Shown here: in pieces, positions 42,049 through 57,250 of the stretch
How positions within the stretch are numbered: the stretch's first letter is position 1
Layout: each line of letters starts with the position of its first letter
Assembly (NCBI GenBank): GCA_934182605.1
Contig: CAKPRQ010000005.1
Coordinates: 3,788 to 67,787 of the forward strand
Length of the DNA: 64,000 nt
Origin: an uncultured Clostridia bacterium
Lineage (GTDB): Bacteria > Bacillota > Clostridia > TANB77 > CAG-508
Direction: 5' to 3'
Translations under genes and position numbers: made by a program
The notes under the pieces: generated by a model
What the model was told of the DNA's origin: nothing
The model's input: the letters and a program-made list of their open reading frames with translations, nothing else
Database searches by the model: none

Positions 42049-42100
42049 TTATTTACCTTTCTTTTTTTTATTTTTTAATTAAATAAATTATATAATTTAA

Positions 42101-43597
42101 TTATGTGATAATAAGTTCATATGCTGGCATTTCTAGCACTCCATCAGTACACCTCATTTTGCACCTTGTTTTTTTATCCGGCAATATGACTTCTACCTTT
42201 TCTCCATATTCTGTAATAGTTCTTTTATTTTCTGTTTGATTTGCTTGACTAATCCATTTCAAAATGTTTTTTCTTACAATAGGTTCAATCACTGGTAGGT
42301 CTTTTATAACTATTTTTCCCTGTACAATATATTTTCTAACCAATTTTTCCTCTTCTTCCCTTTGTTTTAAATATTCCTCTATTTTTTGTTTTTTTATTTC
42401 TGTTTTATCTTCTATTATTGTCTTTTCTTTTTTCTCCTTAAATTCTCTTATTCTAGGTTTTATTTCAATTTCTTGTCTAACTTCTTCTAAAATACTACTA
42501 TTTACATTATCTGTTTCTCTCTCAAAATTTCCTTTTAAATGTCTAGTATTTTTCATGCCAAAAACTAAACTAGATAATTTATGTGCTTCTTCTATTGTCT
42601 CAGTATTACAAAACATTTCACAAATCTTTTTATATTCCGCTTTTCTACTATTTATATTTCCTTTTGATTCTGCAATTTGATTTGCTATTCTAGTTATTTT
42701 TCTTATAATCTCACTAGTTTTTTCTTCTATATTTTGAACTTCACTTTCCCTTTTTTCGTCTCCAATAAACCATTTCTTTATGTTTTCCCATTTTTCTTTA
42801 TTTCTATCTTTCATTTCTTGCTCTGGAATATCCTCTTCTAATTTATCAATCCTTATAATCTTTTTTTGTGCTTGCCAAACTTTATCTAACACTTTAATTT
42901 CTGTATCTTTATTTACAGTTTTTAATATTCTTTCTATTTCATAAGAATTATCTTGAAGCGCTTTAATAAACTCTCGTAAATACATTACTAAGTCATTTTT
43001 ACTTGCAATAAACTTAGAACTTTGTGCAACTTCTTCCATTCTTATATTATAAAAAGATTTAATATATGCTTGATAATTTTCATTTAATCTTTTAAAATCT
43101 GCATTTAAGCTCTCCCACCAACCATTTACTTTACTTTCAATTTCATTTTCCATTTCATTAATTTCTGCTATTTCTTCTTTTATTTTTTCTATTAATGTAG
43201 GATCTAAAGATGACCCTTCAATATGTAAATTTTCAAGCTCTACAACTAAACTTTCTATTTTTACTGCAAAATCTGATAATTGATATCTATATTTTTTATT
43301 CTTAAATTCTTCTAATGTATATGCAACAGAAGTATCTTGAATTGCAATTAAATTCTTCCACTCAGTTAAAGCAGCTAAATCATTATCACATTGTTCTATT
43401 GTATAATTTTCAAACCCTTTTTTCCCTACAAATTCATTAAATATATCTTCTTTATATAACATATAATTCATTTTTTGATTTTGTATATAAAAAAAACGCA
43501 AAATAGGTCTATACCTTTTTGTGTTTTCTTTTGTTAAATATGCTGTTTCTAAAATTGTTTTTGTTAGTTTATCTGTTATTTCCATTATATCTCCCAT
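42101..43597 (-). CDS. jetA: Wadjet JetA / MksF-like kleisin-type protein
   Basis: 498 aa and first gene of the operon. Its size and position fit JetA (DUF3375). Confidence 0.5.
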   Translation of the reverse strand: MGDIMEITDKLTKTILETAYLTKENTKRYRPILRFFYIQNQKMNYMLYKEDIFNEFVGKKGFENYTIEQCDNDLAALTEWKNLIAIQDTSVAYTLEEFKNKKYRYQLSDFAVKIESLVVELENLHIEGSSLDPTLIEKIKEEIAEINEMENEIESKVNGWWESLNADFKRLNENYQAYIKSFYNIRMEEVAQSSKFIASKNDLVMYLREFIKALQDNSYEIERILKTVNKDTEIKVLDKVWQAQKKIIRIDKLEEDIPEQEMKDRNKEKWENIKKWFIGDEKRESEVQNIEEKTSEIIRKITRIANQIAESKGNINSRKAEYKKICEMFCNTETIEEAHKLSSLVFGMKNTRHLKGNFERETDNVNSSILEEVRQEIEIKPRIREFKEKKEKTIIEDKTEIKKQKIEEYLKQREEEEKLVRKYIVQGKIVIKDLPVIEPIVRKNILKWISQANQTENKRTITEYGEKVEVILPDKKTRCKMRCTDGVLEMPAYELIIT

Positions 43598-43691
43598 TTT
43601 TATATTTTAAAATATTTTATTTTACTGAATTAAATTTACATAAATATTTTACTATGTTTTTACATTTTTTTCAATATAAATATATAATTTT

Positions 43692-44099
43692 TTATTGAAA
43701 ACTTTCTATATCATATGGCCAATCAATTATTCCACCAAAATTATATATTTTGGTATATCCCATTTGAGATAATTTTTTAGCTGATAATTCACTTCTATAT
43801 CCACTTCTACAATAAACTAATATCACTTGATTTTTATCTTTTGGTTCACTATTAGCTCTTTCTTCAATTTCATAATCTGGGATATTTATTGCATTTGGAA
43901 TATGACCTTCATTATATTCTTCTTGAGAACGAACATCTAAGATAATAAATCCCGAGTTATTATCCATATATTCCTTTGCCTCTTCTGCTGATATATTTAT
44001 GTAATTTGTTGTTGTGTTTTTATTCATCATAAATCCTCCTATTGAAATTATAATTAATATACTAACTAGTAATATTATTAGAAATGTAATTTTTTTCAA
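43692..44099 (-). CDS. membrane-anchored rhodanese-domain sulfurtransferase
   Basis: N-terminal TM helix followed by a rhodanese fold with the active-site loop CRSGYRS. Confidence 0.7.
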   Translation of the reverse strand: MKKITFLIILLVSILIIISIGGFMMNKNTTTNYINISAEEAKEYMDNNSGFIILDVRSQEEYNEGHIPNAINIPDYEIEERANSEPKDKNQVILVYCRSGYRSELSAKKLSQMGYTKIYNFGGIIDWPYDIESFQ

Positions 44100-44379
44100 C
44101 CTTTCCCTCCAAAATATTTGTATAATATTTTTAATAAATACTTTTTACTATTTCTTTTAAATTATATCATATATTTTTTTATAAATATATATTTTAATTT
44201 TATTTTTTTATTTCTATTTAAAGTTTATTAATGAAAAATGTATTTTCACAAATTATTACATGTAGCTATTTATAAGTTAATACCCAAATTGTATCACTAT
44301 AGCTATGTTTTGTGGATTTTATACTGTGCTTTAACAATTTTTATATTCTTTATAATTTGAACCTTCGGGTTATGAGCCC

Positions 44380-44530
44380 GTAAGTGTTGATATTGCTGGG
44401 TTTGGTGTAATTGTGTTATGCTTTGTTAGAGTAAGTTAATCGGTGAAATTGGTGATGCTTTGTTTGTGTTAAATTGTGTTTAAAATCGTGTAGTTTTGTA
44501 GAGAGTGTGACCAAGGTGTGACTAAGAAAC
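44380..44530. repeat. Strongly GT-skewed (plus strand) repeat-containing segment at the left edge of the integrase element
   Basis: Short direct repeats (attgtgtt twice, tgctttgtt twice, gtgtgac twice). Composition is unlike the surrounding AT-rich DNA. Confidence 0.3.
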
Positions 44531-44540
44531 CACTTCTTAA

Positions 44541-44574
44541 AGATGTAAAAAATACACATATTATAATGTGTATT
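44541..44574 (-). terminator. Terminator hairpin (aatacacat / atgtgtatt) plus T-tract for the TPR gene
   Basis: Seen directly, immediately 3' of the stop at 44575. Confidence 0.5.
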
Positions 44575-46878
44575 TTATAAAATATCTTTTATTATCTTTT
44601 TTAATATTCCCCATATTAATTCTGCTTCTTCCGTTTCAATATTCATAGTTTTTCTAAGCTCTACACTTGGATGTATTAAGTTTCTATAATTTCGTAAAAA
44701 TTGTGTCAAATGATAATCTGTCTGATGTATTATATATTCTTTTTGAGCAACTTCTATTAAATCAGCTAATCCCATATCTTTAACTTTAATTTTTCTCTCT
44801 TTACCATCTTTTATTAAACTATAATTTTTAATTCCCTTCTCTTGTACTTTATAATTTAGTAAAGCCTCTGCCATGCTTCCTGATAATACAATAGCAGTTT
44901 TTTCTTGTTTACTTGCCATTGCTATTGCACATTCTTTAAAATCTCTTAATAGTATTTCAACAATTTCTTTATCTTCTATTTTTCTTATTTTATTTTTTAA
45001 TTCATCTGTATATCCAATACTACTTAAATAGTCAATGTTTATATTTCCTGAAATATTTTCATATTCTTTATTAGCTTCTATATACTCTATTCTTTCTTGA
45101 AGATAATCTCTTACCAATTCATTTAATCTATATTGGTTTCTTCCCCAATCATCTTGACTTTTAATTTTCACTATATATTTTTTATTAGTAAATGTCTCAA
45201 ATAATTCTTGAGCTTTTTCTGGACTAGTCTTTAAAATTTTAGGTCGTTCATTATATGAACATGTTATTATGCCATCTTCTACTTGCTCATATAATAATTC
45301 CAATTTTGATAGCACCCATACTTTTTCTTTTTGAATTTCTTCATATGCTTCATATAAATCACTTATTTTCTTATTAACATCCTTTAAATTTGAAGATGAA
45401 ATATTATCCTCTGGATCTGATGCTGATGCAATTTCAAAATACTCCTTAGCTTTAAACAGATTTCCCTCTTCTTTATAGATAACACCTAAATTATTGTTAT
45501 ATGCAGAATTATTAGGGTTTTCTTCTAATAAATATTCATATAATTGTCTTGCCACATTTTTATCCCTATGAGAATATGCTATTTCAAAAATATTCTTCAT
45601 TTTCAATAAGTGTCTAATTTTAATATCTTTTACTAATCTATCTATATAATCATACATATCTCTTTTGAATAACTCTTTTACTATGCAATCTATAAAAGTC
45701 CTTATTAAATCTCCTACTGAAATATCATAATTTTGAATATTATCCTTTATAATTATTAATCTATTTACAATTTTTATTAAATCTTCTTTATTTGTATATT
45801 CTAAATAAAAATCATATTTCTTCTTTCCAAAGACTTCTCTAGCAATTCTATTCTCTGCATATTGTTTTATTGCAAAGTCAAATGCTTCAAAATTTTTTTC
45901 TACATTTATATACATATTAAATATTAGAATATATATTTCTTTTTCATAGTCGTAATATTTTAAAGCTGATATTAAATTCTTTATATCCTTTAATTTATAA
46001 TTTATGTCTTCTCCATTATTAATCTTGATATTTAAATATGAGCCTTTCATTATTCTTATTTTTGCTTGTTTTTTATTCGTAAAAGAGTTCTCTAATTCTT
46101 CGAAAATTTTCATATATAAATCATTTAAATCAACATCAATTTCATTTTTCCAAAAATACATATCCTCTATTTGACATTTTATTGGAATTTTTTCCATTAT
46201 TTCACTAACATTTTCTTCATCTTCTTCCAAATATAATAGTATAATATAGTGCCAGTATTTTAGTTCATTCTTAATATCTTCATTAATTATATCTGTTATA
46301 TTTTTTATTATTTCTTCTTTATTTTCTAATTCTTTGTTTTCCAATATTTCACTTGATATTTTTAACAAATAATAAAAATGCTCTTTTGACTTATCTTTAA
46401 ATTTCACTTTTTCTATTAATTCTACTGTTCTTTTATAATTCTTCTCTCTATATGAATATTCTATAAAACTTTTATAAATATTTTCATCTGCAATATTGTT
46501 TTCTAAGAAATACTCTATAATTTTGTTCTTTTCTTTATTACTTTCTCTAATAAAAAGTCTTTTATATAATTCAATATCCTGTTCAAATTCTTTTAGTCCT
46601 TTTTTTAAAAAACCTATTGCAATATTGTTATCTTCAACCTCTAAGTCGTCGTATCTATAATATGAAAATCTAAAACTCGGAATGCAATTAATACTCTTTT
46701 CATAATAATATTTCGCTTTTAAAGTATTTCTCTCTTCTTTTCGTTCTTCTATCATTCCTAGCATATGATATAACCTTGCAAATTCTTCTTCATGTTTCTT
46801 ATCTTTTAGCATAATTTCAATTAGTTTTTTTGCTTCATTATCTTTATTTTGTTTTAATAGTTCAATTAGTTCTTCCAT
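44575..46878 (-). CDS. large TPR-repeat protein with a C-terminal HEPN-like (Rx6H) domain
   Basis: 767 aa. TPR-like repeats include AYNNNLGVIYKEEGNLFKAKEYFEIASASDP. The C-terminus reads ...QFLRNYRNLIHP..., an Rx4-6H motif. Confidence 0.45.
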   Translation of the reverse strand: MEELIELLKQNKDNEAKKLIEIMLKDKKHEEEFARLYHMLGMIEERKEERNTLKAKYYYEKSINCIPSFRFSYYRYDDLEVEDNNIAIGFLKKGLKEFEQDIELYKRLFIRESNKEKNKIIEYFLENNIADENIYKSFIEYSYREKNYKRTVELIEKVKFKDKSKEHFYYLLKISSEILENKELENKEEIIKNITDIINEDIKNELKYWHYIILLYLEEDEENVSEIMEKIPIKCQIEDMYFWKNEIDVDLNDLYMKIFEELENSFTNKKQAKIRIMKGSYLNIKINNGEDINYKLKDIKNLISALKYYDYEKEIYILIFNMYINVEKNFEAFDFAIKQYAENRIAREVFGKKKYDFYLEYTNKEDLIKIVNRLIIIKDNIQNYDISVGDLIRTFIDCIVKELFKRDMYDYIDRLVKDIKIRHLLKMKNIFEIAYSHRDKNVARQLYEYLLEENPNNSAYNNNLGVIYKEEGNLFKAKEYFEIASASDPEDNISSSNLKDVNKKISDLYEAYEEIQKEKVWVLSKLELLYEQVEDGIITCSYNERPKILKTSPEKAQELFETFTNKKYIVKIKSQDDWGRNQYRLNELVRDYLQERIEYIEANKEYENISGNINIDYLSSIGYTDELKNKIRKIEDKEIVEILLRDFKECAIAMASKQEKTAIVLSGSMAEALLNYKVQEKGIKNYSLIKDGKERKIKVKDMGLADLIEVAQKEYIIHQTDYHLTQFLRNYRNLIHPSVELRKTMNIETEEAELIWGILKKIIKDIL

Positions 46879-46968
46879 AGTAAATCCTTTCGATACTTTT
46901 TAACTATTATATTAACATTATTTAATCAAATATTTTGTCGAAACTTGTAGAAAATTATACTTTTATAA

Positions 46969-47796
46969 TTATTTATGGTTATCTATTTTATCAATATATT
47001 CATCCCAATCTTGTTCATTTCCTTCCATTTCGTGCAACCAAAAATACATAAATAATATTTCAAATTCTTGTTTTTTACCTTTAGTAAATGATTTCTTTGG
47101 CATGTTCCTATATAATGAATCTATATTAAATAAATTATCTCCATTTTTATAATCATATTCATATCCTCTATATGATTCACTATTTTTCTTTTTGTGTTTA
47201 CTTCCCCATATTTCTGGAGTTTCATAAAAATAATTTACCCAATCGAAAGCAAAAGCACATAAATTTACACCATATTTATTTTTCGTTTTCTCTATCCATT
47301 CATCTATTTCTTCATTTATCGATGGAATATTCCACCTTGATTGATTACTTTCCACTCTATGATATTCTTTTAAAAATTTGTATAACATTTCTTCTTGCCC
47401 TTTTAAATATGGAAATCTCTTTATATACTCAGCATAGCACTCATAAGATAAACTTCTGAATTCACTTTCTTCACTTAATAAATAAAAATAAGTTTGTTCT
47501 ATCCTTGTGCCTCTTCCTATTGACTTATCTAAAAAGTTTCCATATTCAGAATATATATTTACTAACCATTCTCTTATTTCAGAATCATAATCTCTTAATT
47601 TTTTACGATATTTATCTAATTTTTCTTCTTTTGCTATTGTTGTTTCCTCTAGTTCTGTAATATCTAAATAATTATTAAAATATTCAAATATATAGTTTAC
47701 ACATATTTTTAAATTTTCATCTTTTTTATTTTTATCAAATTCATTTATTCCATCTTCTTTTTTTCTTTTTTCAACATATTCTTCTAACTTCATCAT
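46969..47796 (-). CDS. hypothetical protein (middle gene of the three-gene cassette)
   Basis: 275-aa acidic protein rich in aromatic residues. No motif was recognised. Confidence 0.4.
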   Translation of the reverse strand: MMKLEEYVEKRKKEDGINEFDKNKKDENLKICVNYIFEYFNNYLDITELEETTIAKEEKLDKYRKKLRDYDSEIREWLVNIYSEYGNFLDKSIGRGTRIEQTYFYLLSEESEFRSLSYECYAEYIKRFPYLKGQEEMLYKFLKEYHRVESNQSRWNIPSINEEIDEWIEKTKNKYGVNLCAFAFDWVNYFYETPEIWGSKHKKKNSESYRGYEYDYKNGDNLFNIDSLYRNMPKKSFTKGKKQEFEILFMYFWLHEMEGNEQDWDEYIDKIDNHK

Positions 47797-47817
47797 ATTA
47801 TTTTTTCTCCTATCTGA

Positions 47818-48579
47818 TTAAAATATACTTTCAAACTCCAATGGCACTATATCTTCATAAAGCAATGTATATTGCGAATTAACTTGCCTATAATCATGGT
47901 AATGTCCAAAATACCATTTTTTAAATTCACACTTTTCTGATATTTGCTGCAAATAATCTGTTAAACAATCTTTCTTATATTTTCCTGCACCTAATATAAC
48001 TTGTACACTTGTTGGACAACAATGTGAAATAATATAATCAACTTTATAATTTACTTTTTCTAAATTTTTAATTCCATTTTCCATCTCTTCATTTGTTGGC
48101 AATTCTAAATCCCACCATGAGTAATCTCTAATTCTAAAATATGCACCTCTTTTTCTAAAGTTATATATCTTTTCTTCTTCATCTAAGTTTAATATTCCAT
48201 CTTGTATATCATGTGAAGATGCTCCACCAAATGCAAATATTTTTTTATTATCTATTTCAAAAATTTCACCTCTCATTAGGTGTAATACTGAATCTCTAAT
48301 TTTGTGTACCTTCCCTCCGTGCCACTTTTTCTCTGGATAGTTATATAATCTAGTAAAATTCTCATGATTACCATCTACAAATAATGTTGTAAAATTCTTT
48401 TTATTTAACCAATCTAACCCATACTTTTCCTGTTCACTCTCGTTTTCAAATGTCCAAACTCCGCCAAAGTCTCCGCATATAATAACATAATCATCTTTTG
48501 TCATTTCTGTTTGAATAGGAAAGTTATCCATTGAAAATCTTGTAAAGTCAGAATGGCAATCTCCTGTTATATAAATCAT
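47818..48579 (-). CDS. calcineurin-like metallophosphoesterase
   Basis: MPP motifs GDCHSD, GDFGGVW and GNHEN are present. Confidence 0.7.
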   Translation of the reverse strand: MIYITGDCHSDFTRFSMDNFPIQTEMTKDDYVIICGDFGGVWTFENESEQEKYGLDWLNKKNFTTLFVDGNHENFTRLYNYPEKKWHGGKVHKIRDSVLHLMRGEIFEIDNKKIFAFGGASSHDIQDGILNLDEEEKIYNFRKRGAYFRIRDYSWWDLELPTNEEMENGIKNLEKVNYKVDYIISHCCPTSVQVILGAGKYKKDCLTDYLQQISEKCEFKKWYFGHYHDYRQVNSQYTLLYEDIVPLEFESIF

Positions 48580-48737
48580 TTTATCACCTTTTTCTGTTCA
48601 TTTCGGTATTTAATATATAAACATATTGATTTTTATTCATTTCTTATATACCGCTTCTGAATTTATTTGTATTATACTATTTTTTATTTAAAATTCCTAG
48701 TATTTTTACAGAAAAAGAAACCTTTAATCAAAGGCTT

Positions 48738-50063
48738 CTAAAATGGCAATATTATTTCTTCATTTTCTTTATTTGTAGAATTTTTACCTAAATCTGGACT
48801 TATCATTTGTTGATGTACCGCAATTACAGCTATACTTTCATTGTTAATTTTTCTTCTTATCATATTTCTATCTTTTTCAGCAATTGCAATGCTTCCATGT
48901 TTTTTCAAATATGTCCAAAGCGCTCCTGGGTTTAATGGAAATTTAATATTTTGTTTTTCATAATATTCTACAACTAATTTATATGCAGTTCCTGGTATTA
49001 AATAATACATGCTTTTTTGACTGTCATAACATCCTAAAACTTTTGCATATGGATTCGTACTACTTTGGTTTTCATGTAGATATACTTGAAAATATGCTTC
49101 TCCACTTGCCAACAATTCTTGTATTGCATAGAAAAACATTTTATCTGGTTTTGAATCTGATGTTCTAATACTTTGTTTATTTGCTAATTTTAACAAACTA
49201 TTAAAACATATTAGTTTCCATTCAGTCATAATCGTTGTATCTATAACACCATTGGCTCTTGCAAATTCAAAAAACATTTCACAACCTATATACAATGATG
49301 CCATATTTTCTGGTATTCTCGCATGAGAAAAATCTCTGTTAAATTTTTCTCTATATCTAGGAAAGTCAATCTTTATTTGCTCTCTAACTTTATCGTAATT
49401 TACAATTATCCATTTTATATACTCTCTCATACAAATATTAAGCTTATCTTTATTTCCTTGTAAGTATGATAAAATATCTAATCTTAAATCTCCCTTTTCT
49501 ATTTCTACAATTACGCTTCTGGCTACCCTACTTTCTGCGAAATTAGGAAAGTTTTCTCCTGTTGCCATTAATATTCCTCTTGAGCTATATGATTTTCTTA
49601 TATCTTTACCATTTTGTTTCATTCTTGATCTGCCTTGTTTATCTCCTGCCATTCCAAATATACTTTCCGCAACTGCTTCCATTTTTCTCGACTCTTGTAA
49701 TGATTGACTTGGATAATAGTCATCTATTAACAATACACTGTCTTTTACTATAAAAGCTTGTTTTTCTAGACTATTTACCGTATCTTTAAACCCACAAGGT
49801 ATTGTATCTCTTTCAAAATTTCCAAAGTGCGATAACATTAATGCTGCTAAAGTACTTTTTTGTGTTCCACTTTCTCCTAGTATCCAAGTAACAAAACCAT
49901 TAGCTATTCCTATTTCTCTAAATATTTCTTGTAAAGGTGCTAAAAAAATGGTTCCTAATAATGGTACTATAATAGTTTCTTTCCCTACATTTAATAAGCT
50001 GAGTGATGTTTCTACACATTCCTTTATTTGTTTTGAATCTAACTGGTCTTCTATAAACTTATA
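48738..50063 (-). CDS. P4/D5-type helicase C-terminal module of a primase-helicase (in frame with the upstream primase ORF across a single TAA)
   Basis: P-loop-like GESGTQKST lies immediately upstream of the annotated Met. Walker B VLLIDDYYP. The frame is open from 50063 down to 48738. Confidence 0.55.
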   Translation of the reverse strand, partial: YKFIEDQLDSKQIKECVETSLSLLNVGKETIIVPLLGTIFLAPLQEIFREIGIANGFVTWILGESGTQKSTLAALMLSHFGNFERDTIPCGFKDTVNSLEKQAFIVKDSVLLIDDYYPSQSLQESRKMEAVAESIFGMAGDKQGRSRMKQNGKDIRKSYSSRGILMATGENFPNFAESRVARSVIVEIEKGDLRLDILSYLQGNKDKLNICMREYIKWIIVNYDKVREQIKIDFPRYREKFNRDFSHARIPENMASLYIGCEMFFEFARANGVIDTTIMTEWKLICFNSLLKLANKQSIRTSDSKPDKMFFYAIQELLASGEAYFQVYLHENQSSTNPYAKVLGCYDSQKSMYYLIPGTAYKLVVEYYEKQNIKFPLNPGALWTYLKKHGSIAIAEKDRNMIRRKINNESIAVIAVHQQMISPDLGKNSTNKENEEIILPF

Positions 50064-51518
50064 TTATTCTAGTCCTGACTCACTTAAATCAACTTTTATA
50101 TCTTTATTCTCTCCAATTACTCCACCATGATATAAATAATGTAATTTTCCATTTATTTTTCTAAAACCCATATGTGAATATATTATTTCTTTAGTTGATA
50201 ATTTACTTAATATTTTTGATGTATCTTTAAAATATTCTTTATTATTTCCATTTGGACTTATTCTAGGCTCAAAGTTCCATGTTCCATTTGCAATCCAATT
50301 TAAGCTCTCAAAGTCTTTTATATTTAGTGTTATTTTTGGCAACTCTTCTCCTGTATTTAAAATAGTTTTTAAAGTAACATCTGTCCTTGTTTCATTTCCA
50401 TCATTATATGTAATAAACTTTGTTGGAATTGCAATAAAATTACTTATTACTTTATCTTCTAATACATCCTTTTTTATTATTTTCTTAACCAACCCTCTGT
50501 CAGAAAATTCATAACTATGAGGTCTTAATAAATCATTATATTGTTTATACTTATCTTCTGATATTTCAAATTCATCATTATATGCATATCCTTCTAATAA
50601 TCTTGGACAATAATAATTATCACTTTTATATTCTATACTTTTTCCTCCATAAAAGAAATCTGCTAAATTTTGTTTTGATGTATCTGGATTAAAATCTTTA
50701 AATATTTCTAATAATTTTTTAGGGATTTTTTCAGCAGTTTTATAATCCACAATGGGTTCTTCCAAAACATAACCAACCCTAAATTTATGTTGTTCCTCAC
50801 TATGGCTAAATGTATAATATGCAAATGTAGGCATAAACTCTATTTTCTTACAATATTCTAGTAATTTATTTATTGTTGCATGTTCTTTTTCATTTGCACA
50901 TATTTTTATTCCATTTTTTGTGTTATCAAAATCCACTAAAAATAATTGTTGCCCTTTAAAATTTTGTTTTGCATTCGACTTTATTCCTGATGGAATTATT
51001 GTTTTTCCTTTTACAATATTATTTAATATTTCATCTAATGAATATTTTTTTATTTCAAGATTAGGTATTCGATTTTTTATATATGCCGCCTCTTTCTTAT
51101 CTGGCTTGCTTGTATGTTCTATTATATCAAACATACAATTTATATCTCTCGGTTTATTACCTTTATCAAATACTAAATCTGTAATTTTTTCTTTTGTTCT
51201 ATTTTTACTGAAGCAAGACATATTTTCTTTTATCTCTATATTTAATCCAAAGTCATTAATCAATTGTTTTGCTGCATCAAAATATGTTGGTAAATTTTTA
51301 TATTGCATTACAAATGTTACCATATTACCACTATGCTCTTTTGCTGCAAAATCTGTAAAACCTTTTTCATCATTTACCCAGAACGACGGATGCTTTTCAT
51401 TTCTAAATGGCGAACAATATCCAATACTATTTCCAGAATGTTGTTGCGGTTCACCTAAATAATATCTTGCTACTTGTTTATTTGTTAATTTACTTCTAAT
51501 TTCATCATATATATTCAA
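50064..51518 (-). CDS. primase module (CHC2-type zinc finger) of a phage/plasmid primase-helicase
   Basis: CHC2-like zinc-finger motif YCSPFRNEKHPSFWV. It ends at a TAA that is in frame with the helicase module. Confidence 0.55.
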   Translation of the reverse strand: MNIYDEIRSKLTNKQVARYYLGEPQQHSGNSIGYCSPFRNEKHPSFWVNDEKGFTDFAAKEHSGNMVTFVMQYKNLPTYFDAAKQLINDFGLNIEIKENMSCFSKNRTKEKITDLVFDKGNKPRDINCMFDIIEHTSKPDKKEAAYIKNRIPNLEIKKYSLDEILNNIVKGKTIIPSGIKSNAKQNFKGQQLFLVDFDNTKNGIKICANEKEHATINKLLEYCKKIEFMPTFAYYTFSHSEEQHKFRVGYVLEEPIVDYKTAEKIPKKLLEIFKDFNPDTSKQNLADFFYGGKSIEYKSDNYYCPRLLEGYAYNDEFEISEDKYKQYNDLLRPHSYEFSDRGLVKKIIKKDVLEDKVISNFIAIPTKFITYNDGNETRTDVTLKTILNTGEELPKITLNIKDFESLNWIANGTWNFEPRISPNGNNKEYFKDTSKILSKLSTKEIIYSHMGFRKINGKLHYLYHGGVIGENKDIKVDLSESGLE

Positions 51519-51664
51519 TTGTATCCCTCCTAAAATATTTCTAAATTTATTGAATATTTTAGGCTAATCGTATATAATATATTTAGAGATTGTTTATATA
51601 GGTTAACCTTTATATTCAATTATATTGTTCTTTCAAGTACCAATTGAAAGGACAATTTTTTATT

Positions 51665-51883
51665 TTATACAATGTGAAAATCCCTTCTTTCATTCAAAAT
51701 GCTATTTTCTTCTTGAGATTTTATAAAATCGTTTACTGATTTTTTTGTAAAAAATACTCTTCTACCAATCCTTACAAATTTTATTTTTCTTTCTCTGATT
51801 AATTTTGAAAGAGACCACTCTGTAAATATCGGTTTATATTTTTCTATTACTTGTTGTTTTGTTAAGAATTCTTCTTCATCCAT
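51665..51883 (-). CDS. excisionase/AlpA-like HTH DNA-binding protein
   Basis: 72 aa containing LTKQQVIEKY...VRIGRRVFFTKKSVNDFI (HTH_17/Xis pattern). Confidence 0.55.
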   Translation of the reverse strand: MDEEEFLTKQQVIEKYKPIFTEWSLSKLIRERKIKFVRIGRRVFFTKKSVNDFIKSQEENSILNERRDFHIV

Positions 51884-51884
51884 T

Positions 51885-52079
51885 TTATTTTGTGTTCACC
51901 TCCTGCTTCTTTAACCAAATTAAAAACTCTTTTTTAGGTATTAATTTTCTATTCCCTATTTTTACTAATGGAATTTGTCCAGAATTTATTAAATTATATA
52001 CTCCTGCTTTTGAAATTCTCATTTTTTCTTGAATTTCTTTAACAGTTAATAGCTCTGGAATATCTGTTTTTTCTTGCAT
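51885..52079 (-). CDS. excisionase-like HTH DNA-binding protein
   Basis: 64 aa containing LLTVKEIQEKMRISKAGVYNLINSGQIPLVKIGNRKLIPKKEF. Confidence 0.6.
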   Translation of the reverse strand: MQEKTDIPELLTVKEIQEKMRISKAGVYNLINSGQIPLVKIGNRKLIPKKEFLIWLKKQEVNTK

Positions 52080-52197
52080 AATCTCACCTCCTTAGAATTA
52101 TTCGAAGTAATTGACAGATTATTCTTGACTTTTAATATGTCTATATGTTACAATAGATTCAAATTTAAGTCAAGACATTTTTGAAATTTATTTTAAA

Positions 52198-52911
52198 ATG
52201 TCTAAAAAGGAGATAGTTATGAAACAAGACTCAAAGCAAATTCATCTATATATAAATAATGATACATGTTATCTTATAGATATTGAAAAAAAAGCTGTTA
52301 CTAAAGAATTTAATTTAGGTAATTTTGTAATTGAATTATTTGAAGAAACTAATGCAACTGAAAAACATTTAATTGAATTTTTGTTAAATAATCATGCAGA
52401 TTCATTATATAATTTAGGTAATGAATTATCAAAAATGGGACCATTCAAATGTAGAATTTTTAGTGGAATTAAAATAGAGAATGATTTACAAATGCCATTA
52501 GAAATTTATACTTTTAAATCTTATCATGATTTTATTTTATTCATTTTATATAGAGCCGCTGCTTTAAATATTCAATTTAATAAATGTAAAAATTGTGGCA
52601 AATATTTTGTTCCTACAACTAAAAGTAATGAAATATATTGTACTCGTGTTTTTAGAAATGGTAAGACTTGTAGAGATATCGGTTATGAGCTTTCTGTACA
52701 ATCTGATGAAATAACAAAGTTATATAGAAATGCATATAAAACTCAAAATGCCAAGAAGCAAAGAAATAAGGATATTGCTAATGTAGATAAACTATTTGCC
52801 AATTGGGCTTCTAAGGCTAAAGAGATGTATAAACTTTGTAAAGATAATAAAATTAAACTTGATGAACTTTCAAAATGGCTAAAAGATAATCAAGATTGGA
52901 TTAATAAGTAG
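52198..52911 (+). CDS. hypothetical zinc-ribbon protein upstream of the integrase
   Basis: 237 aa with a four-cysteine zinc-ribbon-like cluster (CKNCGKYF...CTR...KTCR). Confidence 0.4.
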   Translation: MSKKEIVMKQDSKQIHLYINNDTCYLIDIEKKAVTKEFNLGNFVIELFEETNATEKHLIEFLLNNHADSLYNLGNELSKMGPFKCRIFSGIKIENDLQMPLEIYTFKSYHDFILFILYRAAALNIQFNKCKNCGKYFVPTTKSNEIYCTRVFRNGKTCRDIGYELSVQSDEITKLYRNAYKTQNAKKQRNKDIANVDKLFANWASKAKEMYKLCKDNKIKLDELSKWLKDNQDWINK

Positions 52912-52923
52912 GAGGTAATATAT

Positions 52924-54108
52924 TTGGCAGGAAACATTCTATATATGGGAAATGAAAAATATAGACTTCGTGTTAGTAATGGTTTCGATTCAAATGGAAA
53001 AAGAAAATATTTCAATAAAACTGTTACTTGTTCATCTAAAAGGGAAGCCGAAAAAGAACTTGCAAAATTTATCACTTCAATTGAAGGCGGTTGCACGTAT
53101 TCTGCAAAAAAAGTTATATTAAATGATTTTAGTAAACAATGGTTAGAAACATATGTAAAACCTAATCTTTCACCAACAGCTTACCAAAGTTATAATGAAA
53201 AATTAAATAAACATATTTTACCATATTTAGGTAACAAGCGACTTGATAAAATAAAACCTTTGGATTTGGATAATCTGTATAATTTTTTGCTAACTAAACC
53301 AACTAATAGAAAAGACAAAAATGGTAATTACAAAACTTTATCTCCAGCTAGTGTACATCGTGCTCATGAAATATTATCTAGCATTTTCAGTAATGCTCTT
53401 AGGTGGGACATGGTTTCATATAATCCATGTACTAAAGTTGTTCAACCTAAATTTAAACGTACTAAAATGACATGTTATGATGAAGAAACATCTAAAAGAT
53501 TAATAAATGCCCTACTTAAGAAAGCTCCTATAAAATATAAATGCTTTGTTATTCTTGCTATATTAACTGGTTTTAGACGTGGTGAATTAGTTGGTTTGCA
53601 TTGGGATGATATTGATTTTAAAAATCATAAAATAAGTATTAAACGAAGTGCCTATTATTTAAGTGGTCAACCTACTTCTGAGAAGAGTCCTAAAACTGAT
53701 TTAAGTACTCGTACAATAGCAGTACCTAGTATTTGCTTTGATTTGCTTAAACAATGGAGATGTGAGCAAGGTAAGATGAGACTTGCATTGGGTAAATCTT
53801 GGAATGGTGCTAAAAATGTTTTTACTACTGCTGATGGTAGAATTATGAATCCTGCAACTGGTCCTAAATGGTTTAGTTCTTTCTTAACTAGAAATGGTTT
53901 TCCTCATATTCGTTTTCATGATTTGAGACATACTTTTGCTACTTTGCTTATTTCTGGTAATGTTGATGTTAAGACTGTTTCTCATAAATTAGGTCATGCT
54001 AGTACTGATACTACTTTGAAGTTTTATGTTCATGATTTGGAGTCTACCGATAGGGCTAGTGCGGAGTTGTTGGAGAATATGTTGGTTAAAGATGTGAATA
54101 TTGTATAA
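52924..54108 (+). CDS. int: tyrosine site-specific recombinase (phage integrase family)
   Basis: 394 aa with catalytic R...HDLRHTFAT...LGHASTDTTLKFYVH (R-H-R-Y). Confidence 0.85.
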   Translation: MAGNILYMGNEKYRLRVSNGFDSNGKRKYFNKTVTCSSKREAEKELAKFITSIEGGCTYSAKKVILNDFSKQWLETYVKPNLSPTAYQSYNEKLNKHILPYLGNKRLDKIKPLDLDNLYNFLLTKPTNRKDKNGNYKTLSPASVHRAHEILSSIFSNALRWDMVSYNPCTKVVQPKFKRTKMTCYDEETSKRLINALLKKAPIKYKCFVILAILTGFRRGELVGLHWDDIDFKNHKISIKRSAYYLSGQPTSEKSPKTDLSTRTIAVPSICFDLLKQWRCEQGKMRLALGKSWNGAKNVFTTADGRIMNPATGPKWFSSFLTRNGFPHIRFHDLRHTFATLLISGNVDVKTVSHKLGHASTDTTLKFYVHDLESTDRASAELLENMLVKDVNIV

Positions 54109-54125
54109 TACTCACATCTTTATTA

Positions 54126-57100
54126 TTATTCATCATATTTATATTCTTCTTTATCTTCTGCAACCATTGATATATTTTTATTTTTTTCTTTATTTGAATT
54201 ATTTGATAAAAATGTTTCATCACTTTTCATTAATCTGTATATAACATTTCCTAAAGAATTCATTATCGCATTATAAAATTCTTTGCTTTCAAATAATTTC
54301 TTATATGAACTAGAACTTTCTTTATATGCTTTACTTGTTTTTTCGCTAAATACTTTTGGAAATACGGATTTTACAAACATATCCTCATTATTTGCCTTTG
54401 CAGATTTTCTAACTTCATCATCTTTCATTATAATGTCCATAATATTTTTAACTAACATATTATCAGCCTCTGTAAATTGTCCTGCATATAAATCATTCAC
54501 TTTTTTTATTACTTCTTCTAAATATCTTTGTTCTGGCAATATTGCAATTGGGATACCTGAACCTTGAGGTTTTACTAATCCTTCTGCCTCGTCTGTTTTT
54601 CTTAAAGATACACTCCCTTGAAATGTTTGTTTTAAATTATAAAAAGTCAATTTTAATGAACCTTCTAAATCAATTGTATCAACTTTATTTTTTGGTAATA
54701 ATTTTTCAACATATCTTAAATACATATATGTTTTATGAAGCTCTTCATCTCCCATAAATGTAATTTGAGTTATATAAGAATAAAATTTATTAAAGCTAAT
54801 TACTTGTTTTCTAAAACTTTCTCTGTCTTCAATTTCAAGTTTGTTATATAAGTCTACTGTTTCTTTAACACAACTTGTTAATCTTCCAAAATCGTTTTCG
54901 TTTTGTTTACCATCCTTCAGATAAATTTTACAGAATTTTTCTATATTCTCGTCATAAATTAGTCCATAACTTTTTATCATGTTTAATTTATCATAAATAG
55001 CATTTGGATTAGTTTCTTGCTCTAGTACAGTAACATCATAAAAAGGCTTAAATGCTTCTTGTATATCTTGAGCTTCATTAACAAAATCAATTACTAATGT
55101 ATCATCTTTTCCTTTACATGTCCTATTTAATCTTGATAAAGTTTGTACTGCTTTTATTCCTTTTAGTTTTTTATCTACAAACATTGTATGTAATAATGGT
55201 TCATCAAATCCTGTCTGATATTTTTCAGCAACTACTAATATTCCAAATTCATCTGAGTTAAAATACTCTTTTGTTTGTGATTCAGATATTTTTTTGCTAT
55301 CTTTTGTTTTATTCATTCCACTCTCTGTAAAAGATTCTCCACCATCTTGCACTTCTCCTGAAAATGCAACTAATACATCAAGATCATCATATCCTTTTTC
55401 TGCAATATATCTTTTAATTTCAAAGAAATATCTGACAGCGTGAAGTCTCGAAGCAGTTACAAGCATTGCTTTTCCTCTACCACCTATTTTATTTTTTGTA
55501 ACATTTCTAAATTGCTCAACTATAATTTGAGTTTTTTGAGTAATATTTATTTCATGTAAACTTTCAAATTTCTTTATTACTTTTGTTGCATAGTTTTCTG
55601 GGACTTCTGGATTGTCTGGTGTATTTTTAGCAATTTGATATATTGTTTTATATGTCATGTAATTAGCTAAAACATCTAATATGAAGCCTTCTTCTATAGC
55701 TTGTCTCATGCTGTACACGTGATAAGGTTTAAATGTTCCATCATCTTGCTTTGTTCCAAATAATTCTAATGTCTTTGGTTTTGGGGTAGCAGTAAAAGCA
55801 AAGAATGAAATATTCTTTTGTGGCCCATGAGTAGCTAACTCTTCAACAATTTTGTCTTCATAATCTTTTTCACTTTCTTCTGCTCTTGCCTCTAATTCAG
55901 CATATTTCTTTAATGCTTCTTCTTTATCTGCTAAAGCTATTTTTAATTTTTTTGCTGAATTTCCTGTTTGACTTGAATGTGCTTCATCCACTATAACAGC
56001 AAACTTTTTGTGTCCCATATCATCTACATCTTTATATATAACAGGAAACTTTTGTAGCGTGGTAATTATAATTCTTTTTCCATCATTTATAGCATCTTTT
56101 AAATCTTTTGATGTTTTTTCGTCATCAATTTTTACAACAACACCTTTTTGATGTTCAAATTGATATATTGTTTCTTGTAATTGCTTATCTAATATTTTTC
56201 TATCAGTTACAACTATAATGGAATTGAATACTGCATTATTGTCCTTGTCATGTAGTCCTGACAACCTATGTGCAAGCCAAGCTATACTATTTGATTTTCC
56301 TGAACCAGCACTATGTTGAATTAAATAATTTTGCCCAACACCACAATCTCTAACATTCCATATTAATTTTCTCACAACATCTAATTGATGAAATCTAGGA
56401 AAAATAATATTTTCTTTTTTCTTAATTATTTCTTTACCACCACGATGTAACACTTCTTCTTTTACTTGTAAATGTATAAATTTATGTATTATTTCCATTA
56501 AAGAATCTTTTTTTAATACATTCTTCCATAAATAATCCGTTGTATATCCATTTTCATTTGTTGGATTTCCTGCACCTCCAACATTTCCTGCTCCATTTGA
56601 ACCTTGATTAAATGGTAAATAATATGTATCTTTTCCTGCAAGTTTTGTTGTATATTTTACATCATAATGATCCACTGCAAAATAAGCTATTATTCTGCTA
56701 TTAAATCTAAATATTAATTCTCTAGGATCTCTATCATACATAAATTGCTTTTGTGCATTTTCACTATTTTGCCCTGTTATTTGATTCTTTAATTCTAAAG
56801 CTACAACAGGAATACCATTTAATAATAAAACTATATCAACTGAATTTTCATTTTGTGTAGAATACTTTAATTGTCTTGTTTCATTCAATATATTTTTATT
56901 ATATAGATCCCAATTTTCTGGTACTAAATTTGTTTCTGGCATAAAGTATGCTAATATAAATTTAAACCCTCTATCTGTAATTCCATTTCTGATTACATCA
57001 ATTATTCCTCTTGTTACTACTTCTTCATTAAATCTTTTTATAAATCTTGATTTATAATCATCTGGAAATGCCATTTTATATCTATTCCATTCTTTGCTTT

Positions 57101-57248
57101 GAGTATCTTCTATAAATTTAAATAAATCTTTTTGATTTAATGCTGATTCTCTATCAAAGTCTTCAGGATATCCTTTTATATATCCTCCATCTTCTGATAA
57201 AAGATATGTTTCAATATCTTGTTCAAATCTTTTTTCATTTTCTTCCAT
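54126..57248 (-). CDS. hsdR: type I restriction enzyme R subunit
   Basis: 1040 aa with SF2 helicase motifs (AGSGKSNS, DEAH) and an N-terminal nuclease region. Confidence 0.9.
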   Translation of the reverse strand: MEENEKRFEQDIETYLLSEDGGYIKGYPEDFDRESALNQKDLFKFIEDTQSKEWNRYKMAFPDDYKSRFIKRFNEEVVTRGIIDVIRNGITDRGFKFILAYFMPETNLVPENWDLYNKNILNETRQLKYSTQNENSVDIVLLLNGIPVVALELKNQITGQNSENAQKQFMYDRDPRELIFRFNSRIIAYFAVDHYDVKYTTKLAGKDTYYLPFNQGSNGAGNVGGAGNPTNENGYTTDYLWKNVLKKDSLMEIIHKFIHLQVKEEVLHRGGKEIIKKKENIIFPRFHQLDVVRKLIWNVRDCGVGQNYLIQHSAGSGKSNSIAWLAHRLSGLHDKDNNAVFNSIIVVTDRKILDKQLQETIYQFEHQKGVVVKIDDEKTSKDLKDAINDGKRIIITTLQKFPVIYKDVDDMGHKKFAVIVDEAHSSQTGNSAKKLKIALADKEEALKKYAELEARAEESEKDYEDKIVEELATHGPQKNISFFAFTATPKPKTLELFGTKQDDGTFKPYHVYSMRQAIEEGFILDVLANYMTYKTIYQIAKNTPDNPEVPENYATKVIKKFESLHEINITQKTQIIVEQFRNVTKNKIGGRGKAMLVTASRLHAVRYFFEIKRYIAEKGYDDLDVLVAFSGEVQDGGESFTESGMNKTKDSKKISESQTKEYFNSDEFGILVVAEKYQTGFDEPLLHTMFVDKKLKGIKAVQTLSRLNRTCKGKDDTLVIDFVNEAQDIQEAFKPFYDVTVLEQETNPNAIYDKLNMIKSYGLIYDENIEKFCKIYLKDGKQNENDFGRLTSCVKETVDLYNKLEIEDRESFRKQVISFNKFYSYITQITFMGDEELHKTYMYLRYVEKLLPKNKVDTIDLEGSLKLTFYNLKQTFQGSVSLRKTDEAEGLVKPQGSGIPIAILPEQRYLEEVIKKVNDLYAGQFTEADNMLVKNIMDIIMKDDEVRKSAKANNEDMFVKSVFPKVFSEKTSKAYKESSSSYKKLFESKEFYNAIMNSLGNVIYRLMKSDETFLSNNSNKEKNKNISMVAEDKEEYKYDE

Positions 57249-57250
57249 AA

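Follow-up and report, generated by a model that had tools for sequence, protein, structure and literature searches.

Satellites of the PICI type are recognised by five core components, namely an integrase, regulation of the alpA/merR/stl kind, a primase-replicase, a capsid-morphogenesis gene and terS (PMC10085698), and this is the definition that we adopt here. In the SaPIs the replication origin lies directly downstream of rep, and helicases of the DUF927 family are related to the Rep protein of SaPIbov1 (PMC7581432). The element described here was found in an uncultured Clostridia bacterium, within a stretch of 64,000 nucleotides (64 kb) that was analysed as a whole and is referred to as the window. 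To our knowledge, satellites are almost unknown from the uncultured Clostridia of the human gut.

An earlier note on this DNA had suggested that the element resembles a PICI; membership of that class is not supported, because only three of the five components are found, and terS, a capsid-morphogenesis gene and a Stl/cI-type repressor are lacking. The element has an integrase and a primase-replicase (a pseudogene in the window, intact in relatives), and its candidate regulatory component consists of two genes of the HTH_17/excisionase family, with no Phage_AlpA and no cI/Stl-like repressor; terS is present only in a distant cousin from IMG/VR (L066) and not in the window element. On the sequence evidence, the likeness to phage satellites is limited to the integrase, excisionase and primase genes. 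The element is best read as a member of a new family of satellite-like, defence-carrying integrative islands, of which the present copy is probably replication-defective.

Gene content of the element

The coordinates of the open reading frames, and the order of integrase, excisionase-type genes, primase-replicase and cargo, were confirmed as the earlier note had placed them. The features of the element are as follows.

44362-54108, both strands: conserved core of the element, a probable integrative genomic island
52924-54108, plus strand: tyrosine integrase of 394 aa, apparently intact (PF00589 and PF14659 (SAM_3); phrog_1, E = 4e-72)
52198-52911, plus strand: DUF6076 zinc-ribbon protein of 237 aa (PF19553, E = 5e-14)
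52080-52197, unstranded: control region between the divergent genes, containing an inverted repeat, TCTTGACTT/AAGTCAAGA
51885-52079 and 51665-51883, minus strand: two tandem genes of the HTH_17/excisionase family (PF12728, E = 6e-13 and 1.6e-5)
48738-51518, minus strand: primase-helicase pseudogene, with an N-terminal CHC2 zinc finger, a C-terminal DUF927 P-loop helicase and a primase domain of the phage type
48580-48737, minus strand: conserved intergenic region downstream of the primase-helicase, with a terminator hairpin and then inverted repeats CGGTAT ... ATACCG flanking an AT-rich stretch
47818-48579, minus strand: metallophosphoesterase (phrog_1649, E = 2e-42)
46969-47796, minus strand: p275, a cargo protein of 275 aa with no Pfam, PHROG, PADLOC or PDB match
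44575-46878, minus strand: TPR767, a cargo protein of 767 aa with TPR profile matches

The integrase and its DUF6076 partner are read in one direction, and two excisionase-type genes and a primase fused to a self-loading helicase in the other; variable cargo comes next, and then an arm of about 170 nt that ends in the anticodon stem-loop of tRNA-fMet. That a zinc-ribbon protein precedes the integrase is borne out by the Pfam matches to Phage_integrase and DUF6076, and motifs of the catalytic type (RRGE, HDLRH, GHAS and FYVH) can be read from the integrase translation. DUF6076 is a core gene, found in all loci of the family and invariably paired with the integrase; its AF2 model is confident (pLDDT 84.5) and has no fold match in the PDB, and a literature search for DUF6076 returned no paper mentioning it, leaving it as an uncharacterised integrase partner. 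The two small divergent genes, previously called Xis-like, are of the HTH_17/excisionase type, and the one at 51885-52079 exceeds the cut-off of TIGR01764 (36.3 bits). Pfam and NCBIfam searches of the element proteins gave no Phage_AlpA match and no cI/Stl-like repressor, and a promoter scan of the control region gave no more promoter-like matches than shuffled sequence did.

The primase-helicase had been described as one CHC2-primase and helicase gene at 48738-51518. The domains are present, but an in-frame TAA at 50064-50066 splits the gene. This codon stands where the family consensus has Gln, a mutation from CAA to TAA, and the Walker A motif GESGTQKS (approximately 49854-49877) falls between it and the next ATG at 49838, so that the stop sits upstream of Walker A. 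Because the mutation removes the helicase, the window copy is probably unable to replicate. The identical split occurs in every metagenome contig that bears the integrase or hsdR allele of the window; the protein is intact, at 926-927 aa, in P0001, L009, L012, L013 and L014, and copies elsewhere that are 98-99% identical have it intact.

The label 'P4-type' does not suit this protein, as NCBIfam gives no match to the P4-family C-terminal part and the helicase portion matches DUF927 only. Judged by sequence, the helicase is a candidate of the SaPIbov1-Rep/Cch-like (DUF927) kind, with a Pfam score barely over the cut-off (PF06048, 22.8 bits versus 22.6) and a partial fold match. The AF2 model, which covers the N-terminal half of the primase-helicase, resembles the zinc-binding domain of DnaG, SaPIbov1 Rep (8TCH) and primases of the phage VirE/DUF927 kind; in Foldseek this half partly matches 8TCH (E = 9e-3, 136 columns), and a sequence-level search of the PDB gave no match. 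The intergenic region that follows stays conserved together with the primase module in loci that have another gene next to it, for instance L011 and L015. By analogy with the position of the SaPI origin downstream of rep, 48580-48737 is a candidate replication origin; it may otherwise be a cargo promoter.

Among the cargo genes, TPR767 belongs to a large family, and its modular C-terminal domain of about 170 aa also exists as a stand-alone protein. This domain may be HEPN/DUF4145-like; one stand-alone homologue has a sub-threshold DUF4145 match, and the motif RNYRNLIH is read from the TPR767 translation. PADLOC gave no match to TPR767 and matched no validated defence system among the cargo genes, and PDB sequence searches with p275 and TPR767 were uninformative. 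The p275 protein is 91% identical in L016/L025, where a different primase adjoins it, and the metallophosphoesterase is kept beside the primase-helicase in the subfamily of the window (L010, L012, L013, L014). The cargo that adjoins the terminal arm differs among the loci of the family.

Capsid, tail and lysis genes had been reported as absent, and indeed no element protein has a PHROG match to these or to terminase. Pfam and PHROG searches found no capsid-morphogenesis gene across the nine genes of the element, and no terS, capsid-remodelling gene, relaxase or recognisable pac, cos or oriT within it; with Pfam and NCBIfam, no relaxase, coupling protein, Rep_trans or type IV secretion gene was found among its proteins.

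The two ends of the element

The element had been placed at 44100-54125, with a length of about 10 kb. The compact unit stands, but its far end lies at 44362-44380 rather than at 44100, because positions 44100-44361 are common to strains without this element and therefore fall outside it. The features at and beyond the two ends are listed here.

44362-44532, minus strand: non-coding terminal arm of about 170 nt, C/A-rich on the coding strand, the region earlier called GT-skewed
44362-44380, minus strand: att core CGGGCTCATAACCCGAAGG, where the element ends on its outer side; its sequence is that of the anticodon stem-loop of initiator tRNA-fMet
44505-44522, minus strand: motif GTCACACCTTGGTCACAC, repeated in tandem with a spacing of 11 bp, on the inner margin of the arm and near-invariant in every family member
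54088-54121, unstranded: hairpin AAAGATGTGA-N14-TCACATCTTT spanning the integrase stop, where identity with other copies ends
54126-61728, minus strand: variable cassette adjoining the integrase, from the type I R-M genes (hsdR, hsdS and hsdM, with one HTH gene) as far as DUF6809
61456-61728, plus strand: DUF6809 gene, the far edge of the cassette

At its far end the element joins the chromosome at a core of the tRNA-fMet type. The core CGGGCTCATAACCCGAAGG occurs once in the 64-kb window (zero occurrences are expected by chance), the identity of the window to L013, L014, L030 and L037 breaks at it, and the same core is in use across species. Three conspecific strains (L030, L037 and L042) are 99.6% identical to the window through the Wadjet/rhodanese flank, and the element that occupies this core in them is another one, whose own GTATCCA repeats have a periodicity of 11 bp. 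In L013 a second integrase/DUF6076/Xis element stands in tandem, 330 bp past the core, and in L016/L025 the core is followed by the displaced 3' half of tRNA-fMet. A search for tRNA genes within the 64-kb window found none; the host contig carries an intact tRNA-fMet about 17 kb past the integrase, with another island and a second displaced fragment intervening, in the same orientation. This arrangement fits the tDNA-island logic of PMC4383910, and the two features that Islander looks for, a tyrosine integrase and, at one end, a displaced tRNA fragment, are both present (44362-44380; L016/L025).

The GT-skewed stretch that the earlier note had singled out is confirmed as GT-rich non-coding sequence and corresponds to the family-conserved terminal arm; the proposal that one att end lies there also stands. 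The arm, which ends ...CACTTACGGGCTCATAAC, is 75-93% identical in L011, L012 and L015-L027 irrespective of the adjoining cargo, and is presumed to be the P arm of attR. Its motif GTCACACCTTGGTCACAC is a candidate arm-type integrase-binding site, and a second copy lies about 100 nt downstream of the tRNA-fMet gene or of a displaced tRNA-fMet copy. A role of the arm as a known or structured RNA was considered and rejected (no Rfam match; RNAalifold, -0.6 kcal/mol with no covariation).

On the integrase side, the gap between the integrase and hsdR stops is exactly the 17 bp reported before (54109-54125). The att site that had been expected in this gap finds no support: the gap holds no repeat, and the breakpoints vary between genome pairs. 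A direct-repeat comparison of 54060-54500 with 43550-44620 gave nothing above the AT-rich background, and a search for the core repeat of an attL within about 7 kb past the integrase in every locus found none. One 10-mer, TTAAAGATGT, was dropped as an att repeat because its copy at 44537 lies on the side of the conserved arm and its copy at 54086 in the integrase tail, which is variable. The window, L013 and L014 cease to match within the final 7-10 codons of the integrase, and both the integrase tail and the hairpin differ from one to the next of L013, L014 and L012; the window and L014 diverge within the tail, and L059 and L014 diverge 32 nt after the stop. The genes to the right of the core in L014 are those that come after tRNA-fMet in L058, which implies that the tRNA end should lie more than 7.4 kb past the integrase.

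Two larger units were also considered. An element of 20 kb, ending at a second copy of CTCATAACCCG just past the end of the window and accompanied by a second arm motif, was rejected: the sequence beside this copy is what follows the intact tRNA gene in L058, and as the comparison with L058 identifies the copy as the displaced tRNA-fMet 3' half of another island, it cannot be claimed as attL. The idea that the stretch from DUF6809 to the core is a mobile block arose from ArsC being on the other side in L012; it was weakened by L062, which is L012-like and has the same housekeeping-type genes to the left of DUF6809, and was set aside.

Spread, surroundings and rival explanations

Two MAGs that represent two other species, L013 and L014, share a block of 9.7 kb with the window at 98.7% and 98.4% identity, respectively (98.95% between the two), and the flanks of both copies are unrelated on both sides. 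Near-identical copies amid unrelated flanks agree with the earlier view of a discrete, horizontally spread unit, and they indicate that the core module has moved between species-level lineages. The element lies in a defence island, as had been noted, between type II Wadjet and type I R-M systems, with rhodanese and Wadjet genes in the left flank and R-M and housekeeping-type genes in the right. The defence system that adjoins the integrase is not the same in the window, L009/L014, L012, L018, L020 and L022, and the position of the type I R-M cassette is held elsewhere by a Type ISP R-M with PDC-M46, a DpnII R-M with Hachiman, PDC-M33 or another type I R-M. Defence systems turn over on both sides of the core.

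A clean empty site was not recovered, the exact hsdR, integrase, PNP and rhodanese proteins and a junction-pattern scan of metagenomes leading only to occupied sites or to the L030-type element. The metagenome scan recovered no circular junction. In IMG/VR neither the family nor its terminal arm was found, and the distant cousin L066 from that collection has a DUF6076/xis/CHC2-primase core and a small terminase; phage and plasmid collections gave remote matches only, and one match from the phage collection, MT838026, was discarded as an unrelated high-GC fragment.

We consider it rather probable that the element is an integrative genomic island, with 44362-54108 as its conserved core, and belongs to a previously undescribed family from uncultured gut Clostridia. 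Int, together with Xis, would excise a circle by recombination at the tRNA-fMet-type core, and the primase-helicase would replicate this circle from an origin directly downstream of its own gene, like SaPI Rep. Since genes for a relaxase and for packaging are both lacking, the element is most probably helper-dependent, with a packaging phage as the most likely helper, and it might be seen as a satellite-like 'hitcher' that repays its host with anti-phage cargo; the term satellite denotes an inferred lifestyle here, as no helper phage or packaging signal was identified. The copy with the CAA-to-TAA mutation would persist within the defence island, probably incapable of replication, and the integrase-side boundary would lie beyond the R-M operon and not in the 17-bp gap. 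Against this reading stand the negative results given above for an attL, a circular junction and a clean empty site, for terS, capsid-remodelling and relaxase genes and pac, cos or oriT sites, for the family in IMG/VR and for validated defence systems among the cargo, together with the merely remote matches in phage and plasmid collections. In addition, homologous replacement between relatives resident in these hosts, and not integrase-mediated transfer, could account for how the 9.7-kb block spread. A broader proposal, which we regard as rather doubtful, is that int/DUF6076/xis/primase elements are widespread 'minimal' phage satellites of uncultured gut Clostridia without a packaging gene, whose serial integration at the tRNA-fMet arm and subsequent decay build up and reshuffle the defence island. 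The island under this proposal includes the R-M, Wadjet and Hachiman-type cassettes around the element, and the targets are the anticodon arm and its displaced copies.

It is possible, though on the whole unlikely, that in this genome the element is an immobilised remnant, serving only as scaffold and cargo of the defence island downstream of tRNA-fMet, with its similarity to other copies due to homologous recombination. The nonsense mutation is fixed in the lineage across samples, an attL was not found, the GC content resembles that of the flanks (0.259 versus 0.24 and 0.262), and L050 appears as the next stage of decay, where the integrase-primase module has been deleted and only a metallophosphoesterase remnant persists beside the same DUF6809/R-M flank. 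However, the window retains an intact integrase, DUF6076 and terminal arm as well as two intact xis genes, and the intact copies with 98-99% identity in other species and other contexts indicate that the family is active now or was so recently. Another explanation, which we think improbable, confines the mobile unit to the 9.7-kb block (44362 to approximately 54110), with an att site that overlaps the 3' end of the integrase and recombines with little or no homology, in a Tn916-like coupling; the integrase tail and the neighbouring defence genes would then be target DNA. The end of the window/L013/L014 identity in the last integrase codons, a weak Arm-DNA-bind_4 match of the integrase, as in Tn916-like integrases, and the match of the Xis of the L013 tandem element to Tn916-Xis all speak for it. 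Yet the far end is clearly site-specific, with one core across species, and random targets would not always come with a terminator hairpin, with a defence operon that converges on the integrase and with a tail that is in frame and of similar length; the pair-to-pair variation of the breakpoints and the L014/L058 gene order count against it as well.

That the element is a bona fide PICI-type satellite, induced by a helper and with its packaging factors hidden among p275, DUF6076 and TPR767, seems to us quite improbable. Its order of integrase, HTH_17 and primase-replicase genes, its size of about 10 kb without structural genes, the fold link to SaPIbov1 Rep and the combination of the same core layout with terS in L066 are all in keeping with such a satellite, but three of five components amount only to 'Type C', a class that the authors of PMC10085698 hold to be ambiguous, the genes past the primase-helicase are variable cargo and not a conserved packaging module, and the family is absent from IMG/VR. 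Very unlikely is an integrative mobilisable element transferred by conjugation, for which a co-resident ICE or plasmid would lend its relaxase and type IV secretion system: packaging genes are absent, the conserved arm could in principle hold an oriT, and a Mob_Pre fragment lies near the related locus L053, but genes for a relaxase, a coupling protein and Rep_trans are lacking from the element, and its replication module is of the phage/SaPI type. A degraded prophage with structural genes nearby, which the earlier note had named as a refuting possibility, is effectively refuted, for although the integrase, the xis genes and the primase have PHROG matches, structural, lysis and terminase genes are missing from the window to both sides of the element, and the same compact layout is seen again in more than 12 loci.

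If the inferred lifestyle of a helper-dependent island is true, the element belongs to a sequence-defined satellite-like family in abundant, uncultured Clostridia of the human gut, defined by its core gene set, terminal arm and att core. It also shows the assembly and turnover of a defence island downstream of an initiator-tRNA gene, in which a conserved integrase-primase core is flanked by two cargo hotspots and natural populations display intact, nonsense-mutated and deleted stages. The cargo supplies candidate defence genes, namely the TPR protein with its possibly HEPN-like domain, p275 and the metallophosphoesterase.

Comparison with known systems

The element resembles PICIs and SaPIs in the order of integrase, HTH regulator/excisionase and primase-replicase, with the likely origin just downstream, in its lack of structural and lysis genes, in its site-specific integration and in its helicase, which would be of the SaPIbov1-Rep/Cch (DUF927) kind. 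It differs from them in having no terS, capsid-morphogenesis or packaging-interference genes and no Stl-type repressor, in the addition of DUF6076 as a core gene, and in the fusion of primase and helicase behind a DnaG-type CHC2 zinc finger. With P4-like satellites (PMC9122126) it shares a tRNA gene target, a tyrosine integrase and a primase-helicase, and its hypervariable defence cassette adjoining the integrase recalls their psu-int hotspot. In contrast to these satellites, it lacks psu, delta and sid as well as a cos site, its host is a Gram-positive gut Clostridia lineage, and it has a second cargo hotspot at the other end. Searches with Pfam, NCBIfam and PHROG found neither psu-delta-sid nor a P4 alpha-family primase (D5_N / primase C-terminal); a P4 alpha / D5_N helicase is absent from the subfamily of the window, whereas the relatives L059 and P0025-P0082 carry D5_N/DUF5906.

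As far as the available parts of the reports describe them, the minimal satellites (PICMIs, PMC10803314; marine elements, PMC9618062) are similar in their small integrase/excisionase/primase gene set, their lack of capsid-remodelling genes and their total reliance on a helper; they come from Vibrionaceae and marine virus particles, with packaging demonstrated, whereas no particle association was found for the present family in IMG/VR. The tRNA islands of Islander (PMC4383910) likewise have a displaced tRNA fragment at one end and an intact tRNA gene, here tRNA-fMet, upstream in the same orientation, and their tandem arrays consist of several islands separated by fragment copies, as seen here; the present element departs from them in that the intact tRNA gene is 26.6 kb away and does not adjoin the integrase, and in that only the anticodon arm survives at this end. 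Finally, while pipolins differ in gene order and in their replication gene (pPolB), the portions of PMC11551731 and PMC10201445 available to us describe pipolins and other defence carriers that are, like this element, integrative platforms with tRNA-derived repeat flanks and exchangeable defence systems.

Gene content and relatives of the element

The window has a GC content of ~25% and carries nearly all of its genes on the minus strand. Between 44.1 and 54.1 kb we found the same open reading frames that the earlier note had listed, and assigned them with their surroundings as follows.

Features of the element (44362-54108) and its flanks
35365-43597: left flank, complete type II Wadjet system (JetA2, JetB2, JetC2 and a JetD-like gene), past the att core
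43692-44099: left flank, rhodanese gene, between Wadjet and the core
44362-44532: ~170-nt non-coding arm, including the 19-mer att core (44362-44380)
Last two genes: 275-aa protein of unknown function (p275) and 767-aa TPR protein (TPR767)
Next after the large gene: metallophosphoesterase (phrog_1649)
Large gene (primase-helicase): N-terminal CHC2 (DnaG-type) zinc finger, C-terminal DUF927 P-loop domain
Two small genes divergent from the integrase side: HTH_17/excisionase-family (xis)
52198-52911, upstream of the integrase: DUF6076 zinc-ribbon protein, 237 aa (profile match)
52924-54108, plus strand: tyrosine integrase (Phage_integrase, SAM_3; phrog_1 E = 4e-72)
Right flank: type I restriction-modification (R-M) operon

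The proposal that these genes form one discrete, integrative unit carrying defence-type cargo is borne out by two related loci from other genomes, L013 and L014, in which 44362-54087 recurs at 98.7% and 98.4% identity over 9.7 kb (98.95% between the two), with no flanking sequence in common with the window on either side. Scanning one genome per species, we recovered 16 loci with genes for primase-helicase relatives, 15 of them in MAGs from human, chicken and other sources that belong to uncultured Clostridia or allied Firmicutes; the exception, in a Candidatus Omnitrophota MAG, is a distant match at 27%. More distant members retain the order integrase, DUF6076, xis, primase, cargo as mosaics: L022 and L024 have integrases 96% identical with primases 47% identical, and in L016 p275 adjoins a different primase. 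Five loci with primase-helicases 35-39% identical (L017, L019, L021, L023, L026) have a different arrangement and different targets, with an integrase downstream of the primase-helicase gene and directly adjoining a tRNA gene (Leu, Phe, Gln/His, Thr, Leu). A second element in tandem in L013 (12262-17882) encodes an integrase (38% identical), an SH3 protein, a 437-aa DUF6076 protein, a Tn916-Xis-like HTH protein and a phage replisome organiser, indicating that the integrase/DUF6076/xis front end pairs with differing replication modules.

The AF2 model of the DUF6076 protein is confident (pLDDT 84.5), with an N-terminal domain rich in beta structure, then a zinc ribbon and a long C-terminal helical domain; the model matched no PDB fold at E below 0.05, and our literature search found no publication naming DUF6076. 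The three cargo genes gave no match to a validated defence model; the metallophosphoesterase has a weak PDC-S10 match. TPR767 belongs to a large family whose C-terminal domain of ~170 aa is also found alone; because one stand-alone homologue has a sub-threshold DUF4145 match and the window's protein bears an Rx6H-type motif (RNYRNLIH), TPR767 is a possible but unproven candidate HEPN-like effector.

The terminal arm and its tRNA-fMet core

The stretch that the earlier note had called GT-skewed and taken for an att end is the arm, which is 75-93% conserved in all family members regardless of the adjoining cargo, opens with a near-invariant tandem motif, GTCACACYTTGGTCACAC, and closes with the core, CGGGCTCATAACCCGAAGG. 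This 19-mer occurs once in the window (0 matches in 100 shuffles) and is the anticodon stem-loop of initiator tRNA-fMet, for which the host's gene reads ...GTTGGGCTCATAACCCAAAGG.... The arm has neither a conserved RNA structure nor an Rfam match, indicating a DNA-level site.

Several independent sequence comparisons put a recombination junction at the core. Identity of L013 and L014 to the window stops inside it. The strains L030, L037 and L042 match the window at 99.6% identity across rhodanese and Wadjet up to 44380, the exact point of divergence, where they carry another element with GTATCCA repeats of its own at an 11-bp period. The assignment of an att end to this region stands. After the core, L016 and L025 keep the remaining tRNA-fMet 3' half (T arm and CCCCCGCAACCA), which is decayed in L024, and in L013 the tandem integrase/DUF6076/Xis element lies 330 bp past the core. 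The junction pattern seen here is the one that tyrosine-integrase islands in tRNA genes should show, with a displaced tRNA fragment at the end of the island (PMC4383910). The other element of the conspecific strains has an arm with 4-6 GTATCCA-like repeats at 11-bp spacing (L030:7700-8020, L042:560-810), and among its cargo are an N6 methyltransferase of 746 aa, a PhdYeFM antitoxin and an ISL3 insertion.

The host contig has an intact tRNA-fMet ~17 kb past the integrase, oriented like the core. A second displaced tRNA fragment, decayed (CTCATAACCCG...), lies ~300 nt past the window end, exactly where synteny with the sister lineages L043 and L050 breaks. The related locus L058 has the order intact tRNA-fMet, the same downstream sequence, NUDIX, TehB, def genes, DUF6809 and R-M, so the second fragment marks where a separate island, inserted at the tRNA gene, ends. 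Since the genes to the right of the core in L014 (NUDIX and def) are those that follow tRNA-fMet in L058, we infer that the element in L014 sits at the tRNA site and that its tRNA end would lie >7.4 kb beyond the integrase, putting the defence cassette within the island. L050 retains the DUF6809/R-M flank and, of the metallophosphoesterase gene, no more than a remnant, indicating deletion of the integrase-primase module.

Other features of this region are recorded here. On the host contig just past the window end (L039:2448-2523 and L003:2940-3066; in window terms ~64184-64309 and ~70948-71023), the intact initiator tRNA-fMet gene precedes an island of 6.7 kb that lacks an integrase and has genes for peptidase M29, sigma-factor fragments, lipase, NUDIX and acetyltransferase; the island terminates in a decayed displaced tRNA 3' half. 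The unusually G/C-rich ~210 nt between the ArsC and DUF6809 stops (~61729-61935) hold CCCCCGCC...GGGGGAACGGCGAGGGGAG...GGGGAGGGGG and are kept across lineages whose adjoining gene varies (ArsC, def or a 307-aa gene). Two ASCH-domain paralogues with 81% DNA identity (34963-35349 and 62293-62685) bracket the island region as a whole, and the host contig has duplicated NUDIX genes as well.

The integrase-side defence cassette

The earlier note placed the other att site in the 17-bp gap between integrase and hsdR. This is not what we observe: the repeat search between the two predicted ends gave nothing above background in or near the gap, which holds no copy of the core, and no other locus had a CTCATAAC core in the ~7 kb past its integrase. 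Near-identical copies lose identity within the last 7-10 integrase codons, past which each has its own integrase tail and hairpin, and the breakpoints vary by genome pair, L059 and L014 keeping a common tail and hairpin and diverging 32 nt after the stop. Every genome has a defence cassette converging on the integrase: type I R-M in the window, Type ISP R-M with PDC-M46 in L009/L014, DpnII R-M with Hachiman in L012, PDC-M33 with a helicase in L020, and other type I systems in L018 and L022. The integrase side looks like a cargo hotspot swapped by recombination, rather than an att site, and resembles the variable hotspot between psu and int of P4-like satellites (PMC9122126).

Within the R-M genes, hsdR and hsdM of the sister lineage L043 are ~96% identical to those of the window, and hsdS differs (57251-59176 vs L043:5838-7703; 621 aa in L043 vs 635 aa called on identical host-lineage contigs, a 641-aa ORF in the window); the homology is lost within hsdS, which suggests a specificity swap. 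The DUF6809-adjacent type I R-M of L050 (1994-5442) and L059 (2009-5441) has two hsdS genes either side of a 324-aa tyrosine recombinase, the layout of a phase-variable shufflon.

The replication module and comparison with satellites

What had been read as a single primase-helicase gene is split by an in-frame TAA (50064-50066). Twelve relatives code for Gln here, so one CAA-to-TAA change accounts for the stop, and because the Walker A motif (GESGTQKS) falls between the TAA and the next possible start codon, a functional helicase cannot be made. The window copy is probably replication-defective. The same split (484 aa and 366 aa) is found in all metagenome contigs with the window's integrase or hsdR allele; the gene is intact at 98-99% identity in the related protein P0001 and in L009, L013 and L014, and at 79% in L012.

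The label "P4-type" is not supported, as NCBIfam returned no P4-family match. Modelled with AF2 (pLDDT 79), the N-terminal 484 aa match the DnaG zinc-binding domain and, in part, the SaPIbov1 replication initiator-helicase (8TCH, E = 9e-3); against a viral library the model matches ~180-200-residue domains of phage VirE, DUF927 and "primase C-terminal" proteins (best E = 8.5e-9). DUF927 helicases, SCCmec Cch among them, are related to SaPIbov1 Rep, and the origin of SaPIs sits immediately downstream of rep (PMC7581432). In the present family the 150 nt that follow the primase-helicase gene stay conserved alongside the module, also at loci with a different next gene, and contain CGGTAT...ATACCG repeats flanking an AT-rich stretch, making this region a candidate origin only. 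Relatives sharing the N-terminal primase domain carry D5_N/DUF5906 helicases in place of DUF927.

No capsid, tail, lysis or terminase family matches any gene of the element, and in this the earlier description (no capsid, tail or lysis genes) was correct. Neither the element family nor its arm was found in IMG/VR, and phage and plasmid collections gave remote matches only. One 9.1-kb viral-database contig (L066, IMGVR_UViG_3300029220_000229; 37.6% GC) encodes a DUF6076 protein, 30% identical, divergent from xis, a CHC2 primase and a D5-type primase-helicase, followed by a gap and a small terminase. L066 is likely a true satellite with the same front-end architecture, so satellite relatives with the DUF6076/xis/CHC2-primase architecture probably exist. 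PICIs are defined by five core components, namely integrase, alpA/merR/stl regulator, primase-replicase, capsid-morphogenesis gene and terS, and elements with three of them are "Type C", a class that its authors judged ambiguous (PMC10085698). The element has at most the first three of the five, and by these criteria it is no PICI, although the earlier note had called it PICI-like. It fits best, as a new variant, among the known tRNA-targeting, satellite-like or helper-dependent integrative islands with defence hotspots.
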